Source: an uncultured virus (IMG/VR IMGVR_UViG_3300012933_000135) (lineage: Duplodnaviria > Heunggongvirae > Uroviricota > Caudoviricetes). From it: DNA of 50,204 bases. Shown here piece after piece: positions 1,899 through 8,083 of the stretch. Each line of letters opens with the position of its first letter. Within the stretch, counting starts at the first letter, position 1. The notes below the pieces were generated by a model. The model did no database searches. It had not been told where the DNA came from and saw only the letters and a list, made by a program, of their open reading frames with translations. A program made the position numbers and the translations under genes. The stretch is from the IMG/VR virus record IMGVR_UViG_3300012933_000135. One strand, written 5' to 3'.

Positions 1899-3050
1899 TT
1901 ATCTACTAAGGCCAGCGCCTTTCATTAGATCGTCAAACTCGTTGTTACCTGTAGTAGGTTGTCCACTTTGTTTAACATTTCCTGCTGCCGGAGCAGTTGA
2001 TTGTGTAGCTGCTGATTGTGTAGTTTGAACTGGCGCAGCTTGTTGTCCTTGCCCTGCTTCTTGCATAGCAGTTTTCATAGACTTAACTAACCATTCTTTT
2101 GGATCATAGTTAACTAATGTAGTTAATCCTGCAGTCTTATTCCATGCCCATTCCCAACTTGGATCAATGACATTCTGTACAAGCCCTGCAATAAATTTGT
2201 CAGCTTCATCACCTTTTAAGATTTGATTAGCAAATATAGTAGCTGCTACTTCAGATCCTAATACGGCCAGCACGACTGCTCTATCTCGACTTGCAAGTCC
2301 AAATGTTAAGAAGTCAGATACTGTTCCTGCAATAGCACCGGTTCCTTGACCAATAGCTCTACCTAGTCTGATACCTAGCCCAAGTGCAATTAGTTTAGTC
2401 CCGGTGATTTCTCTGTTTTCTCTAGTAAGGATATCAGCTTGTTCTTTAGTGATAGATCCTTTAGCAAGCTCGCTATTGACATATCCTTGTTCTTTCCAGT
2501 ATTCAACTCCTAAGTCTGCTGCACCTAAATACTTTACAGCGTTGACCAAGTTACCCGCAGCTTTCTGGAACATAGTAGTTGCTTGAACATCTCCAATCTT
2601 CTGACGAGGAATAACATCATTTGGTGCTCTTGACGGCTTACGAATCTTAGGTTCTTTAGGTGGAACTTCAACTGTAGGTGTTGACGGCTCAGTAGTAGCT
2701 CGAGGGGTAGATTGTTTAGTAGGTGCTGCTACAGCTGGCTTACCTGCTTTGATCTTAGGTTGTGCTCTCTTGGCAACTTCGTCTAAGATAACTTTAAGCT
2801 GTTCAGGAGTTAGGTTAGGATCTAGATCATTCTTTAATACTGCATATGGATTAGGATCAATAGCTTTACCTGCTGATCTTGCATTAATAACAGCATCTGC
2901 GTATTTCGTAGACGAAGTTTCAATGAAAGGTTCTAATCTAGTTAGCAACTGACTTTTACTTCTAATCGAGGTAATCCCTTTCCATAAATCAGAAGCAATA
3001 CCCATAATTCTTCCAGGGTTCGCTTCATTTACAATATCGTATATCTTCAT
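1899..3050 (-). CDS. Hypothetical protein, probable virion/internal head protein
   Basis: Likely start MKIYDIVNEA at 3050; late promoter AATAAATA upstream; Pro/Thr/Gln/Ala-rich linkers and one hydrophobic Gly-rich segment. Confidence 0.5.
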   Translation of the reverse strand: MKIYDIVNEANPGRIMGIASDLWKGITSIRSKSQLLTRLEPFIETSSTKYADAVINARSAGKAIDPNPYAVLKNDLDPNLTPEQLKVILDEVAKRAQPKIKAGKPAVAAPTKQSTPRATTEPSTPTVEVPPKEPKIRKPSRAPNDVIPRQKIGDVQATTMFQKAAGNLVNAVKYLGAADLGVEYWKEQGYVNSELAKGSITKEQADILTRENREITGTKLIALGLGIRLGRAIGQGTGAIAGTVSDFLTFGLASRDRAVVLAVLGSEVAATIFANQILKGDEADKFIAGLVQNVIDPSWEWAWNKTAGLTTLVNYDPKEWLVKSMKTAMQEAGQGQQAAPVQTTQSAATQSTAPAAGNVKQSGQPTTGNNEFDDLMKGAGLSR

Positions 3051-3074
3051 TTTGATAATCCTAATCACTTTCTA

Positions 3075-3082
3075 TATTTATT
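3075..3082 (-). promoter_or_regulatory. Late promoter AATAAATA
   Basis: TATTTATT on +, ~25 nt upstream of ATG 3050. Confidence 0.65.
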
Positions 3083-3083
3083 A

Positions 3084-3545
3084 AGATGAACTACGTTCAT
3101 CTGTGTTTATCGCTATCGCTCAAACACATATCTTTCTTTTTAACTGAAGCAATATTAGCTGCGAAGCAGTGAAAAGATATTATCTAGATTGATCAGTCAC
3201 ACTTAGCCCAGCTAAGGGCTAAGAAAAAATGGACATTATCTGAGTTGAACATGTCACATAACGTTAGAGCATTACAGTGGCGGTTGACCGGTACCACGAG
3301 CTCAGTCTTAATTACAACGGCGGTTACTACATAAACGTTATCTTACATAGCAGCGCGGGGTTTTTCTCCCCTCATTTAACCTATATTAGTATCTTCAAAC
3401 AATCAAACCGCAGGAATTAAGCGATCTTCGTCCGGTAAAGGATAGTGATTGAGTGCTTGTTTCAGCGACAAGACTTCGGATCCCTGCGACACTAGGTCCA
3501 GGTTTCTACTGTTCGGCACCCGATTTTAGCCGGTGCGAGCCCTAA
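3084..3545 (-). ncRNA. Candidate large structured non-coding RNA / structured cis element (~460 nt)
   Basis: The only long ORF-free stretch in the window. At least ten stems, e.g. CTTAGCCC/GGGCTAAG 3202-3223, CTTGT/ACAAG 3456-3472, GCACC/GGTGC 3516-3536, nested GAGC-GTGG-CGG stems 3267-3303, and an 11-bp stem at 3325-3352 that pairs fully only on the minus strand through 4 G-U wobbles. Also duplicated internal motifs. Confidence 0.65.
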
Positions 3546-3553
3546 CTGAATGA

Positions 3554-3979
3554 TTAGCCTTTTAATATGTGCGAGCCATGTACACGAACTTGAATATGTC
3601 CGTTATAATAGTCGTCACTTTCTAGTACTTTGCGGGAAAATTGTTCTCTGGCCTCGATGTAAGAGCATTGTGCCTTGGAGTTGCAGTAATATAAGATTTC
3701 TCTTTTGAAGTTTTCAGTGCCTAATGTGTCTATGTCTTTTTGAAGATTAGGACTACTTCCGTAGTACTCACGCCAGTCGCTGTCGACTTTGCTTCTAATC
3801 TTCTTTTTCTTCTTTGTGCCATTCTTTAAGGTTACAGTTTTAACTGATGTCTTTGAGAACTTGGCGAGTTTTTTGCCTATATATTTTCTGCCAGAGATGA
3901 CATTTGTTATCAAATATACGAATCCAACGCAATCTTCTGGGAGAGCGTCAACTATTGTATCTTGATAAGTCCATGACAT
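3554..3979 (-). CDS. Stand-alone GIY-YIG family nuclease-like protein
   Basis: GFVYLITN...RKYIGKK, YYGSS, FKREIL, conserved Glu (YIEAREQF) and YYN; Lys-rich insertion KNGTKKKKKIRSK. Confidence 0.75.
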   Translation of the reverse strand: MSWTYQDTIVDALPEDCVGFVYLITNVISGRKYIGKKLAKFSKTSVKTVTLKNGTKKKKKIRSKVDSDWREYYGSSPNLQKDIDTLGTENFKREILYYCNSKAQCSYIEAREQFSRKVLESDDYYNGHIQVRVHGSHILKG

Positions 3980-3982
3980 GCT

Positions 3983-4234
3983 TTAGTTAGCATTGTCATC
4001 CTTGGGTGCCTGTCGGTCTTGAGCCTTTTTTGCCTTAGTTTGTTCGTTTAATTCGTAACGCCAGTCCATTACAACTTTACGGCGTTCGCTGCATATTTTT
4101 CTAATAACGTTGAGCCAGTGACGTACATCCATGCCTGCTCTTCGAGTACCTTTGTTTAACCAACGTTGGTTAGCTTCGAAGTATTCTCGAAATGCCTGCA
4201 ATAGTTCTGCGTGTAGCTCTTCGTCTCTATGCAT
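3983..4234 (-). CDS. Small basic helical protein, Hc1/histone H1-like nucleic-acid-binding family
   Basis: KGTRRAGMDVRHWL..IRKICSERRK resembles the KGNKAAGxRxRxxLxxIxKxxxExRK pattern of Hc1-like proteins. Confidence 0.5.
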   Translation of the reverse strand: MHRDEELHAELLQAFREYFEANQRWLNKGTRRAGMDVRHWLNVIRKICSERRKVVMDWRYELNEQTKAKKAQDRQAPKDDNAN

Positions 4235-4425
4235 TAGTCCTTAGCCTGTTTAATAATTTCGTCTGTTGCTTTGCTAGCACGATCTTGTTCAATGCTAACA
4301 TGATGTAATCTATTAGCACATTGACGAATATCATCGGACAAGTTACCTCGTCCGATATTATCTTCGACTAGTTTAGCAATTTCATGCAGTGTAATAACTG
4401 CATCTACTAATGCTAAGTCTCTCAT
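4234..4425 (-). CDS. Hypothetical protein (63 aa)
   Basis: Start and stop overlap both neighbouring genes, implying translational coupling. Confidence 0.6.
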   Translation of the reverse strand: MRDLALVDAVITLHEIAKLVEDNIGRGNLSDDIRQCANRLHHVSIEQDRASKATDEIIKQAKD

Positions 4426-6197
4426 TCTGTAATTTCCAAATCGTTTGCATAACTTGTGAATCCGTTTTCTTTAATAACTTTAAGTACGTTATTCACACGT
4501 CCAATCAATTCATCTTTATGCGAGATCAAGAAAATATTTTTCTTTCGTTCACGACCCATCTTCTTCAGCACACCTAGCGCACCTTCAACACCGCTAGCGT
4601 CTAGTCCGTTGTCGATCAGCTCGTCGATGAACAGTAAGTTGATTTGTTCGTACAAACTTTCCCACACGTCGCGGAATGCCCACGACAGTGACAAGATTAA
4701 ACGATTACGTTCGCCACGTGACAAGTTATCAAAGTCTAGATCCTGCCCAAGCTGCATAATTTCTACATTCAAATCATTTTGGAATGTGACAGTATGCGGT
4801 AGTCCCATCTTGTCGAGATAGTATGTCAATCTGTTATTAAGATAGGCTAAATTCTGATCAATGATCTTTTTCCGAATAAAGCTGTCTTTACTAGTCAGCA
4901 ACTTGAGCAGGAACTCTTGGTGTTCCTTGATTGCATTGAGCTCATTTACTCTATCCCATACGATTTCTTGCATGGCAGTGTGCTTGAGTTCGTCAATTTG
5001 TTCTTGATACGGATCAGTTTCGTCTGCTTTAATAACTAAATTAGTTTCGAGAGTCTTCAAGTTGTTTTGATGCTTGAGCGCTTCTTCAACAGTATCATAA
5101 TAAGTGTCAGGACGTACTGGAGCATCATCATGTCCAATCTCTGCTACAATAGCAGCAAGGTCTGCAACAATCTTATTGTGATACTTGGTTGCTTCAGTTA
5201 AGTGTGCTTGTGCAACGGCAGACATCTCTTCGTGTTTATGATCATGCAATGCTTGTTCACAAGCGTGACATGTTTTATTAGCTAATGCAGCAAGTTCAGT
5301 GGTATATTTCTTTACACTTCGTTCAGCTTGTGCTACTGCACTTTCTAATGTGGCTTTTTCTTTGTTCAAGCTCTTTAGTTTAGCAGTATACTCAGTATAA
5401 CTCTTTAGTTGGGCGTGTGCAGTTAGTTCTGCATCAATGTCAACACTTTCTAATTCAACAATTGCTCGTCCGATCTTTTCCAAATCAGTTTCTTGTTGAG
5501 AGATCCATGCTCGTTGTCGAACAATCAATGCATCGATACTTTGTTGAATCTTATCGTTTGACTTTTTAGTTGCTTCTAAGTCTGCTGATTCTTGAATAAT
5601 AGTATCTTTAGTTTCTCTGATTAGCTCTTTCAACGTATCGGCTTTCTCTGAAAGCAGTGTGATACCTAACAGTTGTTCAATGATAACACGCTGCTCACCT
5701 GTCTTTTGACTCAAGAATGGTTCAGTGTAGGTGTTCAATGCTACAATATGTTTGAACATGTCATGACTCATGCCTAGCAATTCGTCAATATCCTTCTGCG
5801 TTTCACGCATATCGCCTTGACTATCATCTGATTCTTCAGCACCTTGCTCTTCATCATCGATGTAGAACTTCATAACAGTAGGCTTGCGCCCACGCTCGAC
5901 CCGATAATTAATCCCGTTCTTTTCAAACGACAAGGTGACTAACATGTTTTTGTTATTAATCTTGTTGATCAAGTTATCTTTCTTAATGTTAGTAAGGGCA
6001 GTACCAAACAATGCAAAGCTCAATGCATTGACGATTGTAGTTTTACCTGTACCGTTGCGTGAGCCACTGTCGTCTCCACCCTGATCTAAGTTCTCACCTA
6101 GCACAAGAGTCATGTTCTCTTTGCCAAAGTCGACTGCTTGAGTCTGGTTACCCACACTCATAAAATTCTTAACTGTTAGATCTTTAATCTTTATCAT
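4422..6197 (-). CDS. Recombination endonuclease ATPase subunit, T4 gp46 / Rad50 / SbcC-like
   Basis: KNFMSVGN, Walker A (RNGTGKTT), coiled coil with zinc hook CHAC, signature LSRGE, Walker B LLFIDE, H-loop ISHK. Confidence 0.95.
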   Translation of the reverse strand: MIKIKDLTVKNFMSVGNQTQAVDFGKENMTLVLGENLDQGGDDSGSRNGTGKTTIVNALSFALFGTALTNIKKDNLINKINNKNMLVTLSFEKNGINYRVERGRKPTVMKFYIDDEEQGAEESDDSQGDMRETQKDIDELLGMSHDMFKHIVALNTYTEPFLSQKTGEQRVIIEQLLGITLLSEKADTLKELIRETKDTIIQESADLEATKKSNDKIQQSIDALIVRQRAWISQQETDLEKIGRAIVELESVDIDAELTAHAQLKSYTEYTAKLKSLNKEKATLESAVAQAERSVKKYTTELAALANKTCHACEQALHDHKHEEMSAVAQAHLTEATKYHNKIVADLAAIVAEIGHDDAPVRPDTYYDTVEEALKHQNNLKTLETNLVIKADETDPYQEQIDELKHTAMQEIVWDRVNELNAIKEHQEFLLKLLTSKDSFIRKKIIDQNLAYLNNRLTYYLDKMGLPHTVTFQNDLNVEIMQLGQDLDFDNLSRGERNRLILSLSWAFRDVWESLYEQINLLFIDELIDNGLDASGVEGALGVLKKMGRERKKNIFLISHKDELIGRVNNVLKVIKENGFTSYANDLEITE

Positions 6198-7207
6198 AGG
6201 CTGTTATAAATCGCTAATAGCGTGTTCTTATTATACTTGTCTGAGTCGATATTCACAATCTGACTGGACACAATCTGATCAACAGATTCAAATGCTTGAA
6301 TATCGATATTAGTATTAATTTCTACTTCCTTGCGCTCAGTAATCAGAGTAAGTTCTCGGATATCATAGTCCGCAATAAACTTCTCTTTGATAAAACTTGC
6401 TTCTTCATACGTGATATCAATGTCTAGTGTAACACGTAAGTGTTGCTTGGGCAAGATCAATGTGTCCGCTTCGTCGATTAGCTGGCTTAGTTTAACAGTT
6501 CTAAACGTAGGTTGGGCTGGCCAAGCATGATATTCGGGCTTGCCTCCCCACTCGAGTATCATCATTCCACGATCATCGTCCCATGCATCTGCATAGTTGT
6601 GCGGAAATGCATTGCCAATGTAATGCATATTCTTCTGTTGTTGACGTTTGTGGAAGTGTCCACTGAATCCGAGCTCGTAAGATTCAAACGCACCAAGTTG
6701 GATCTCACCATGATCGGGCATTTGAACCATTGCATTCATAAAGAAGCTAGGCAATTCAAAGTGACCAAAGATATACTTGCCGCCTTTCTTACCTATGGTT
6801 TTCCATTCGTCTCCCACGAGCCAAGGACAGAGTGTAACGTTCCCAATAGTAACAGGTTCGTGAACAATGGTAATTCCTGGGATGTATTTTCCAAACTCCA
6901 CAGAGTGAATATCCCGTTTATCTTTGTAATATAAATCATGGTTGCCAGGAAAAAAGTAAAAATTATCAAACGCTTGTCCCAGCTTTTCCAAGGCCCGCAG
7001 GCTATAGTCCATTGTAGTGATATTAAGACTATTGCGATTGTGATGCCAGTCACCCATAAAAATTCCAGTATCACAACCTTCCTCCTTTGCTTTGGCAATA
7101 TACCAATCTACAAAATCTTCGCAGTCTTGGTTATGTGTATTACTGTTTGACTTCAATCCGAAGTGGATATCTGTAAAACATGCGACTTTTTTGAATAAAT
7201 TACTCAC
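6194..7207 (-). CDS. Recombination endonuclease nuclease subunit, T4 gp47 / Mre11 / SbcD-like
   Basis: Metallophosphoesterase motifs DIHFG, GDWHH, GNHD, GHFE, SGHFH; likely GTG start at 7207 overlapping the upstream stop. Confidence 0.95.
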   Translation of the reverse strand: MSNLFKKVACFTDIHFGLKSNSNTHNQDCEDFVDWYIAKAKEEGCDTGIFMGDWHHNRNSLNITTMDYSLRALEKLGQAFDNFYFFPGNHDLYYKDKRDIHSVEFGKYIPGITIVHEPVTIGNVTLCPWLVGDEWKTIGKKGGKYIFGHFELPSFFMNAMVQMPDHGEIQLGAFESYELGFSGHFHKRQQQKNMHYIGNAFPHNYADAWDDDRGMMILEWGGKPEYHAWPAQPTFRTVKLSQLIDEADTLILPKQHLRVTLDIDITYEEASFIKEKFIADYDIRELTLITERKEVEINTNIDIQAFESVDQIVSSQIVNIDSDKYNKNTLLAIYNSL

Positions 7208-8033
7208 TGCTAGTGTCCTCATTGTGTCGTTTCAACGCCGCAGCATGTTCGCCTGCACCAGTGCGTGAGTACGATGGGTTCATTCCGTTCATTTCAAGGA
7301 TGTCATCACGGATATTTTGATTACGTTTCTCGATATTAATAACTCTAACGAAGCTGTTTGTAACCGCAGCAGTAAAATATGCAAACGGATTGTCTGATTT
7401 ACTCTCGTCAAACTGCAAGCCAATTTGCGTAAGCTGCAAAATAGCTTGGCCTTTCATTTCGTCGTTATAAGTATAACCACGCACGTTGCCGCGTGTAGCG
7501 TAACGTTCGCATAGCTTGATCATCATTCGAGCTAATGTTGGACTAATTTGCCCAGCATCCTTGTCAAAGTGACCCTTTTCTAGATCGCCCTTCCAATGGC
7601 TTTTGCCCACACAAACAAGCTCACCGGCATCGTTGTATTTCCAGTGCTGAAACGGCGGAAAATTAACTTTATCACGGCCATCTGCTACCGTTTTGGGGTT
7701 CTTTTTACGAATTGTATTGAGCGGAATGTGTTCGTAAGTCATTACTCGAAACACTAATTCTTCCTTAGTAATCTTCTTATAGTCCACTTCGCAGTCGGCT
7801 TGTTTAACCTTTTCACCTGCTCGTTTACGGGTAGCGTAGTCTAAATCTGCAAGTCTTTTGGCCTTATTTCTTTTAGCTTCGGCTACTGTGCGTATGTTTA
7901 TTTTGTCCGTACTAGGCAAAATAATGTCATATTGATGATAACTTGGGTCTGTAAAACTACAGTATGATGCTTTACTTCTATGGATTTCCAACAACATATC
8001 CTTGTTGTTTAGATAATTTACTTTCACGGTCAT
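7200..8033 (-). CDS. Late-transcription sigma factor, T4 gp55-like
   Basis: NYLNNKDML N-terminus; RGYTYNDEM...FDESKSDNPFAYFT motif; upstream of gp47-gp46 as in T4-like phages; ATG 8033 with AGGAA RBS. Confidence 0.85.
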   Translation of the reverse strand: MTVKVNYLNNKDMLLEIHRSKASYCSFTDPSYHQYDIILPSTDKINIRTVAEAKRNKAKRLADLDYATRKRAGEKVKQADCEVDYKKITKEELVFRVMTYEHIPLNTIRKKNPKTVADGRDKVNFPPFQHWKYNDAGELVCVGKSHWKGDLEKGHFDKDAGQISPTLARMMIKLCERYATRGNVRGYTYNDEMKGQAILQLTQIGLQFDESKSDNPFAYFTAAVTNSFVRVINIEKRNQNIRDDILEMNGMNPSYSRTGAGEHAAALKRHNEDTSSE

Positions 8034-8054
8034 GGATGCATTCCTATTTTGTTT

Positions 8055-8083
8055 ATTATAAACTATGTACATTATTTTGTCAA
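8055..8083 (-). promoter_or_regulatory. Perfect sigma70 promoter TTGACA-N17-TATAAT
   Basis: Minus strand reads TTGACA (8083-8078) AAATAATGTACATAGTT TATAAT (8060-8055), upstream of the gp55-like ATG. Confidence 0.9.

Follow-up and report, generated by a model that had tools for sequence, protein, structure and literature searches.

A modular Polynucleobacter-1 RNA behind a GIY-YIG gene of T4-like freshwater phages

Large orphan noncoding RNAs (ncRNAs) associated with phages include GOLLD and ROOL, which are several hundred nucleotides (nt) long, show covarying structure, and are sometimes present in several copies per genome. A large structured RNA can also adjoin a nuclease gene on one strand, as found for IscB/IsrB and the omega RNA (HEARO). 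Here we analyze a 485-nt gap without open reading frames (ORFs), together with the GIY-YIG gene in front of it, in a stretch of 50,204 nt from an uncultured virus (IMG/VR record IMGVR_UViG_3300012933_000135; the whole stretch is termed the window), for which an earlier note on the same DNA had proposed a candidate nuclease-RNA system. The closest described RNA is the Polynucleobacter-1 motif (Rfam RF01718), published by Weinberg et al. in 2010 (Genome Biol 11:R31; PMC2864571) as a 16-row alignment in which 11 rows are long (274-304 nt); the table of that paper scores the motif "y" as an RNA, "y" as cis-regulatory, and "?" as a switch, and assigns it to Burkholderiales and to fresh water or estuary. 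A full-text literature search on the motif found only this paper on the RF01718 RNA.

The gap holds a member of this family on the minus strand, within a unit that is longer than the published motif. We favor, with rather more confidence than doubt, the reading that the gap encodes a structured ncRNA of modular build and ~455 nt (~3541-3084, minus strand), either as a gene of its own or as a 3' tail that is processed. Such an RNA would most likely be transcribed as the end of an early unit composed of gp55, gp47, gp46, small ORFs, and the GIY-YIG gene, would be stabilized by its own structure, and would act in trans. Its body (3541-3258) combines a 5' three-way-junction domain with a pseudoknotted 3' domain around an invariant GGUACCGG..ACCGCC hairpin. 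Our guess is that it may be a protein-binding scaffold or decoy, with twin loops that show one short "address" twice. On this reading the GIY-YIG gene is a vertically inherited neighbor that occupies a place where different nucleases can reside, and it is no obligate partner.

An orphan Rfam family known since 2010 from the 16 sequences of the published alignment is now tied to T4-like freshwater phages that form a very abundant clade (at least 583 relatives of the neighboring gene and at least 120 matches to the RNA motif in IMG/VR), and its slot, strand, extent (~455 nt), and modular architecture are defined. Compared with Rfam and the 2010 alignment, it is new that the carrier is a phage with a particular slot for the RNA, that a 3' platform bears concerted twin loops, and that the bodies are interchangeable.

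Family, structure, and strand of the RNA

ORFs of at least 60 amino acids (aa) cover a fraction of 0.982 of the window, and the single gap of 120 nt or more is the 485-nt gap at 3069-3553. It starts at the stop codon of the 141-aa GIY-YIG gene, and the earlier note had correctly recognized it as the only long noncoding stretch. Using cmscan, we found RF01718 at 3541-3397 on the minus strand, with a score of 97.1 bits (gathering score 37) and an E value of 2.6e-21. The match is not truncated, spans positions 1-141 of the 141-position model, and is the sole Rfam match in the window; no other Rfam family was detected in 2800-4300 at E up to 1, nor in the whole window at gathering scores. This clean match takes away the novelty that the element might have had as an RNA. 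A group I intron carrying the GIY-YIG gene was considered and rejected, as no intron model matched in 2800-4300 at E up to 1 and the ORF is located upstream of the RNA, not inside it.

The likeness extends beyond the Rfam model. In the alignment of Weinberg et al. (PMC2864571), the long rows run past the 141 model positions through a hairpin, a long hairpin, a nested stem with the GGUACCGG..ACCGCC core, and a pseudoknot. The window shares the layout of these 11 rows from 3541 to ~3258 (the ~280-nt long form), and the 140 nt that follow the model match the authors' 3' extension, including its core hairpin and pseudoknot. The core motif occurs once in the window (3295-3270), with 0 occurrences expected. 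The parts of the body are as follows.

3397-3541, minus strand: 5' domain of the RNA, equivalent to the RF01718 model (cmscan, 97.1 bits)
3258-3396, minus strand: 3' domain of the long form, with the layout of the 2010 alignment and covariation of helices 5-11
3373-3356, minus strand: hairpin in the 3' domain
3356-3320, minus strand: long hairpin in the 3' domain
3303-3267, minus strand: nested stem around the invariant GGUACCGG..ACCGCC core
3341-3335 paired with 3264-3258, minus strand: pseudoknot, with compensatory changes in 7 of 7 pairs

Related loci were collected in two ways. In the protein-based collection at least 600 stretches matched the search pattern, at least 583 of which encode a GIY-YIG relative, and 80 loci were kept; in the motif-based collection at least 120 stretches contained the exact 26-nt core motif, and 80 were taken with their flanks. 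For covariation we aligned 93 sequences that are less than 90% identical. The 53 pairs of 11 helices, including the pseudoknot, were 96.0% paired, versus 32-47% when the partners were slid by 1-3 columns. Compensatory changes were present in 41 of the 53 pairs, with 740 cells showing changes on both sides versus 69-115 in the slid controls, and none of 500 shuffles matched any of the observed pairing measures. Helices 1-4, which form the 5' domain, were 96.6-98.7% paired with both-side changes in 13 of 17 pairs, and helices 5-11 were 86-100% paired. G-U cells outnumbered A-C cells (346 vs 51) and pairing was higher on the strand of the GIY-YIG gene than on the opposite strand (96.0% vs 90.0%); therefore, the RNA strand is the minus strand.

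The fold energy is a much weaker signal. The minus strand folded at -134.6 kcal/mol with a z-score of -2.55 (2 of 100 shuffles were as good), close to the z-score of -2.27 for the plus strand. Given that these z-scores neither separate the strands nor prove structure, covariation was used as the test. The earlier note had described a highly structured element on the minus strand, a view that the energy bears out weakly and the covariation strongly.

A 13-nt insert (GAACAG-U-AGAAAC; 3512-3500, minus strand) lies between the first and second RF01718 helices of the window. Beyond the window it is present in 6 of the other 92 aligned sequences, its carriers including L009, L049, L057, L110, and L126 and, outside the 93-row set, L014 and L022.

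In size, ornate covarying structure, phage carriage, and presence in multiple copies (4 in one record, see below), the RNA is similar to GOLLD and ROOL; it differs from both in architecture and in the group of host phages, and neither was matched by Rfam in the window. Its habitat is like that given for Polynucleobacter-1 in the 2010 table (fresh water, estuary), and both are orphan RNAs. The carrier here is a T4-like phage with a fixed slot for the RNA behind genes 55, 47, and 46.

The 3' platform and its twin boxes

Behind near-identical GIY-YIG genes we found three kinds of RNA body, all of them followed by the same 3' platform. The type 1 body is the RF01718 long form, the type 2 body joins this GGUACCGG..ACCGCC core to another 5' part of ~200 nt, and the type 3 body is unrelated and ~330 nt long. 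Among the 148 distinct loci with both boxes (described below), 118 are type 1, 14 type 2, 6 type 3, and 10 unclassed. Type 2 loci include L005, L024, L026, L028, and L046, and type 3 loci include L002, L003, L037, and L068. None of seven type 2 or type 3 loci scanned matched RF01718 or any other Rfam family at E up to 1. Among the pairs of their predicted helices, 24 of 65 carry compensatory changes in type 2 (12 sequences) and 13 of 72 in type 3 (6 sequences), both being small sets with no control.

Nucleotide conservation detected by blastn extends from the GIY-YIG stop codon to ~3075 in many loci, and the unit runs ~175 nt past the end of the published alignment. The modules located past 3258, namely the twin loops with their hairpins and the terminal hairpin pair, are in neither Rfam nor the 2010 alignment. 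In the window they are arranged as follows.

3232-3257, minus strand: twin-loop unit 1, composed of GUGAC, 7 nt, and box 1 (A-CUC-AGAUAAU-G; hexamer at 3240-3235), kept in 143 distinct loci
3202-3223, minus strand: G+C-rich hairpin between the twin boxes, with a U-run in front (compensatory stem changes, 90 sequences)
3176-3200, minus strand: twin-loop unit 2, composed of GUGAC, 6 nt, and box 2 (A-UCU-AGAUAAU-A; hexamer at 3184-3179)
3159-3169, minus strand: small hairpin with a UUC loop behind box 2, read from the sequence and weakly conserved
3103-3127, minus strand: terminal hairpin A, with a stem of 6 base pairs (bp), a GA..GA internal loop, 2 bp, and a GNRA-like loop, found with RNA types 1, 2, and 3
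3084-3102, minus strand: terminal hairpin B (AGA, 5 bp, loop, 5 bp, UCU), with which the RNA unit probably ends

In 51 of 89 loci every pair of the outer stem of hairpin A can form, with 28 versions of the 5' arm, and the inner 2 bp covary (GC/GC 78, AC/GU 6, GU/AC 4). The stem of hairpin B has no mismatch in 79 of the 89 loci and occurs in 18 distinct versions. A convergent gene of 63 aa has its stop codon 0-20 nt past hairpin B in 19 of 71 distinct loci (a count from which row L063 was left out as an artefact), and at least one variable gene is inserted past hairpin B in 50 loci, including the window. As hairpin B borders the convergent gene in those 19 loci, the unit probably ends there and is not the leader of a downstream gene.

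This arrangement bears on the possibility that the element acts in cis on its mRNA, either as a riboswitch-like leader of the next gene or as a stabilizer or terminator block in the 3' untranslated region of the gp55-47-46-GIY-YIG transcript. Such a role would agree with the position of the RNA 12 nt past the GIY-YIG stop codon with no promoter of its own in sight, with terminal hairpins that lie exactly at the border to the next or convergent gene, and with a highly conserved core hairpin that could be a ligand pocket. It would also agree with the 2010 table (PMC2864571), where the motif is scored cis-regulatory and possibly a switch. The probable cis-regulation given in that table is contradicted here by the 19 of 71 loci in which no same-strand gene follows. 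Moreover, in the window ~180 nt of modules and a late-type promoter word separate the long form from the next start codon, a unit of ~455 nt with a pseudoknot and three interchangeable bodies exceeds what a terminator or stabilizer needs, and four copies in one genome stand behind unrelated genes. We therefore regard a cis-acting element as improbable, while giving it more weight than the other alternatives below.

The twin boxes have the general forms A-CUC-R-S-A-U-R-A-D-G (box 1) and A-UCU-R-S-A-U-R-A-D-A (box 2), and are spaced by 47-59 nt in 143 loci. The hexamer was identical in both boxes in 129 of 129 distinct loci, 58 matches being expected if the boxes were independent. It occurs in six variants (GAUAAU 76, GAUGAU 23, GAUGAA 13, CAUAAU 7, GAUGAG 5, CAUGAA 5), five of which are found within type 1 and two within type 2. 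In the 143 loci, offsets -1, 0, +3, and +5 agree between the boxes in 142-143 cases, and offsets -4 to -2 and +6 do not vary within either box and set the two boxes apart. In 101 type 1 sequences, the mutual information of a box position with its sister position equals the full entropy (e.g., 1.00 bit at offset -1, with GG in 51 and AA in 50), and the next column reaches 0.21. Since the loci are related and partly located on shared contigs, cells were not counted as events. Within 450 nt, no complement of the boxes recurs at a fixed location, mutual information is not high for any third column, and the 50-kb window contains no further copies of the boxes. Single-sequence folds of unit 1 mostly place ACUC..GAU in a hairpin loop and AAUG in the 3' arm of a stem.

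Several known types of site were compared with the boxes. As promoters they were rejected on account of a spacing of 10-11 nt between GTGAC and the hexamer and of the lack of other copies in the 50-kb window, and as -10 elements because 3 of the 6 variants (GATGAA, GATGAG, CATGAA) lack the final T. Sites of the CsrA type, which contain GGA, appear to fit some box variants only, the A-variants having no GGA. A fit to only some variants likewise appears to hold for C/D boxes, anticodon-loop mimicry, lambda nut sites, type III antitoxin repeats, and DnaA boxes. The perfect concert of the twin-loop letters offers a simple handle for mutation tests on this orphan RNA.

Direct repeats of this kind could also operate at the DNA level, where boxes and hairpins would be protein-binding repeats and cruciforms of a replication origin or of a recombination or packaging signal, or would be the target of the nuclease encoded next to them. 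The two repeats, 47-59 bp apart, change their letters in concert as iterons do, the element adjoins the recombination nuclease genes 46 and 47, and the G-variants of box 2 seem to resemble the complement of a DnaA box. This explanation is nonetheless very unlikely, given that the stems accept G-U far more often than A-C (346 vs 51), as fits one-strand RNA and not duplex DNA, that the hairpins stay paired through many different sequences, and that the boxes are nowhere else in the window.

The bodies and boxes can be combined into a more specific proposal, namely a modular "addressed" ribonucleoprotein scaffold or decoy of T4-like freshwater phages. In it, a common 3' platform, whose two loops present one short word that changes in concert, would accept different bodies, namely Polynucleobacter-1 or one of at least two bodies that are not catalogued. 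We hold this proposal to be speculative and slightly less probable than action in cis. If true, the RNA would capture two copies or a dimer of a trans partner, with a specificity that differs between phage or host lineages, and it would represent a new type of phage RNA whose specificity code could be read.

The GIY-YIG gene as a neighbor of the RNA

The earlier note had proposed that the RNA may be a partner, scaffold, or guide of a GIY-YIG protein without DNA-binding domain, which would then borrow its specificity from the RNA, or may be its cis substrate, and had expected a conserved covarying structure downstream of GIY-YIG homologs. Such a structure is indeed present on the same strand. 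RF01718 follows the gene in 12 of the 20 GIY-centered loci scanned, an ORF-free gap of 320-580 nt follows it in most of the 80 GIY-centered loci, and a GIY-YIG gene is located upstream in 72 of the 75 RNA-centered loci with enough upstream DNA (5 of the 80 do not have enough). Extra ORFs lie between gene and RNA in one RNA-centered locus (L099) and in five GIY-centered loci (L004, L019, L049, L054, and L077).

The two parts are nevertheless separable; this independence, like the clean Rfam match, is an outcome that the earlier note itself had named as counting against its proposal. In the three RNA-centered loci without a GIY-YIG gene (L094, L090, and L156), the slot contains a PD-(D/E)XK nuclease (PF24608, E = 2.5e-29), which looks like a non-orthologous replacement of the small nuclease beside genes 46 and 47. 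In a 327-kb record (G002), RF01718 is present in four copies, at 35, 165, 233, and 311 kb, with no GIY-YIG gene within 1.5 kb of any of them; in four single-copy records a GIY-YIG gene is found within 1.5 kb of the RNA. Conversely, GIY-YIG genes that are 72-90% identical precede the type 2 and type 3 bodies, and the closest GIY-YIG relatives of the window among the loci kept (L001 and L002, 89-90% identity) carry type 3.

Some further features of these loci were observed. The slot nuclease has 173 aa (L094, 1221-1742) and also matches PHROG 244, "RusA-like resolvase"; in two of the three loci an RNase HI-like ORF (139 aa, named by eye) follows the PD-(D/E)XK gene. The G002 copies (L204, L206, L207, and L208) are diverged, have no twin boxes of the window's type, and each have ~0.7-1 kb devoid of long ORFs behind them; three are preceded by small ORFs that are paralogs within one family (conserved Y-C-F..L-N-x-D-G..G-W-R-L-P).

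The variable letters do not follow the nuclease closely. Mapping the box word onto a GIY-YIG tree (106 loci) requires 23 or more changes, compared with a possible minimum of 5 and with 38-45 in shuffles. In a small test with 36 loci, the box letters tracked neither the GIY-YIG tree (9 changes, shuffles 8-11) nor the tree of an upstream 83-aa ORF (8 changes, shuffles 8-11). An unpaired hypervariable segment of the guide type, which the earlier note had envisaged within a conserved scaffold, was not found, the variable parts being stems with compensatory changes and the 4-8 letters of the twin loops.

Taken as a functional pair, gene and RNA would account for the 72 of 75 loci with GIY-YIG upstream, as direct neighbor in most, for the ORF-free gap behind the gene, for a protein that is a bare catalytic domain with a Lys-rich beta-hairpin, for the PF24608 nuclease that fills the slot where GIY-YIG is missing, and for the twin loops as a short variable element within a conserved scaffold. 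We still consider a nuclease-RNA system quite unlikely. The RNA stands without the gene in L090, L094, L156, and all four copies of the 327-kb record, the gene stands ahead of three different bodies, the box letters fit its tree no better than shuffles (36 loci), a variable element of 4-8 letters is far too short for a guide, and no HEARO or other guide-RNA family of Rfam matched 2800-4300 at E up to 1. Compared with IscB/IsrB and HEARO, the order is reversed, with the RNA downstream, the nuclease belongs to another family, there is no guide segment, and each part is also found without the other. Gene and RNA look like long-standing neighbors, not a machine, and the nuclease-RNA claim, which fails the tests applied here, should be placed on record to spare others from pursuing it.

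As a catalytic domain, the protein appears intact and unremarkable.

3554-3979, minus strand: gene for a stand-alone GIY-YIG nuclease of 141 aa that consists of a SegE-type catalytic domain only (PF19835, PHROG, AF2 model)

It matched Pfam PF19835 (SegE_GIY-YIG) with 114.8 bits (cut-off 25; E = 3.8e-33), residues 3-129 aligning with profile positions 1-123 of 123, as well as PHROG 447 and the homing-endonuclease PHROGs 7363 and 314. The profile is full over residues 3-129, which leaves no space for a further domain in 141 aa and bears out the lack of a C-terminal DNA-binding domain reported in the earlier note. Residues Y22, Y33-I34-G35, R62, E109, and N126 were invariant in 28 of 28 relatives; we take them to include the active-site Tyr (GIY), Tyr (YIG), Arg, Glu, and Asn, whose roles come from work on I-TevI and are assigned here by position only. 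The earlier note had also placed a very basic insertion after YIG, where the catalytic Arg is usually found. The Lys-rich stretch does exist; it belongs to the family profile and forms, in the model, a beta-hairpin (residues ~40-66) that ends in R62. Given the invariance of R62, the usual Arg is probably present in the sequence rather than missing. The basic hairpin is 6 residues shorter in a distant subgroup of relatives.

The AF2 model has a pLDDT of 80, with a low-confidence coil for the last 19 residues. Its top three Foldseek matches in the PDB are I-TevI catalytic domains, the matches being weak (E = 0.06-0.14; TM 0.41 for the query and 0.6 for the target) and the best being 1LN0 (E = 0.06, prob 0.99); by sequence, no PDB entry matched at E up to 1. 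The protein resembles T4 SegE and the I-TevI catalytic domain in its above-threshold profile match, its expected catalytic residues, and, weakly, its best structural matches, and differs from them in having no C-terminal DNA-binding domain. Unlike homing genes, which are sporadic, this gene is syntenic, being found with 55-90% identity at one fixed position in almost every related locus, in a sampling that leans to this phage clade, and it is replaced by the PD-(D/E)XK nuclease in three loci. Because it has no DNA-binding domain and is syntenic, "homing endonuclease" is used here as a family label and not as a function.

Transcription and genomic setting

The window is a segment of a T4-like freshwater phage. 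On the minus strand gp55 (7200-8072), gp47 (6194-7222), and gp46 (4422-6197; its product matches PHROG 77, SbcC-like, E = 5e-100) are followed by small ORFs (4234-4425 and 3983-4234), the GIY-YIG ORF, the ORF-free gap, and a 389-aa ORF (1899-3068). The plus strand carries the 63-aa ORF and a T4 baseplate-family gene, which converge on this block. No tRNA or tmRNA was detected in the window. No GenBank phage matched 3069-3553 by blastn, and hence no cultured relative was found.

8055-8083, minus strand: consensus sigma-70-type promoter before gp55-gp47-gp46 (TTGACA, 17 nt, TATAAT; 12 of 12 positions)

No strong minus-strand terminator was found between this promoter and the RNA, which starts 12 nt past the GIY-YIG stop codon with no room found for a promoter of its own. 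The sigma-70 promoter proposed in the earlier note is present, and the co-transcription that it was said to drive is plausible; the RNA would then be processed from the transcript. As the longest gp55 ORF begins at 8072, its first codons coincide with part of this promoter, so that the real gp55 start is probably a downstream ATG.

Parts of 3069-3979 were present in 20 sequencing runs from fresh water, estuary, or groundwater, 6 of which are recorded as RNA. Contigs from four freshwater metatranscriptome studies (at least 85% likeness) covered ~3170-4030 within the interval 2400-4700, and a single contig of 523 nt (3224-3704) joins the RNA to the 3' part of the GIY-YIG gene, which fits co-transcription of the two. 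The uncovered flanks are no finding, as these are contigs selected at an 85% threshold and the covered part is the conserved one.

Several observations weigh against reading the gap as the gene or processed tail for a trans-acting ncRNA beside a mere neighbor. The RNA-library evidence consists of contigs, with possible carry-over of DNA and a leaning to the conserved part, and gives neither ends nor levels; by the rule of the tool used, there is no terminator-like site behind the RNA on the minus strand; and the fold energy does not separate the strands. A functional pair would likewise be expected to have GIY-YIG upstream of the RNA as often as observed (72 of 75 loci), and at this locus another nuclease is present whenever GIY-YIG is missing. 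Gene conversion between the repeats, with no function required, could be what keeps the twin boxes identical, as could selection for identity, which would mean that one trans partner reads the word twice. Finally, the loci were chosen by GIY-YIG similarity or by the 26-nt motif and their contigs were not deduplicated, so all counts lean to this clade.

The 26-nt core motif was also searched in contigs of bacterial genomes, giving 3 matches, of which 2 are chance matches in G+C-rich coding DNA and 1 is a phage-like contig. The latter (L209) is a 1957-nt contig in the bin of a Bacteroidetes metagenome-assembled genome, has the order GIY-YIG, RNA, convergent 63-aa gene, and is most likely mis-binned phage DNA.

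Beyond hairpin B, the window continues with the start of the next gene.

3048-3082, minus strand: start region of the next gene, with a late-promoter-like word, then AGGA, 8 nt, and ATG (3062-3048)

The word AATAAATA at 3082-3075 (minus strand) is one letter off TATAAATA, the consensus word of T4 late promoters; L002 has the exact TATAAATA at the corresponding place. The true start of the next gene is probably the ATG at 3050 rather than the GTG at 3068. The region 3048-3082 was placed outside the RNA, since the gene there is variable cargo that is absent in 19 of 71 loci. The slot between hairpin B and the convergent 63-aa gene is thus a cargo slot, empty in those 19 loci and holding unrelated ORFs in 50. 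In the window it is occupied by the 389-aa ORF, which matched no Pfam or PHROG family and has a low-complexity middle, hydrophobic stretches, and the late-promoter-like word in front.

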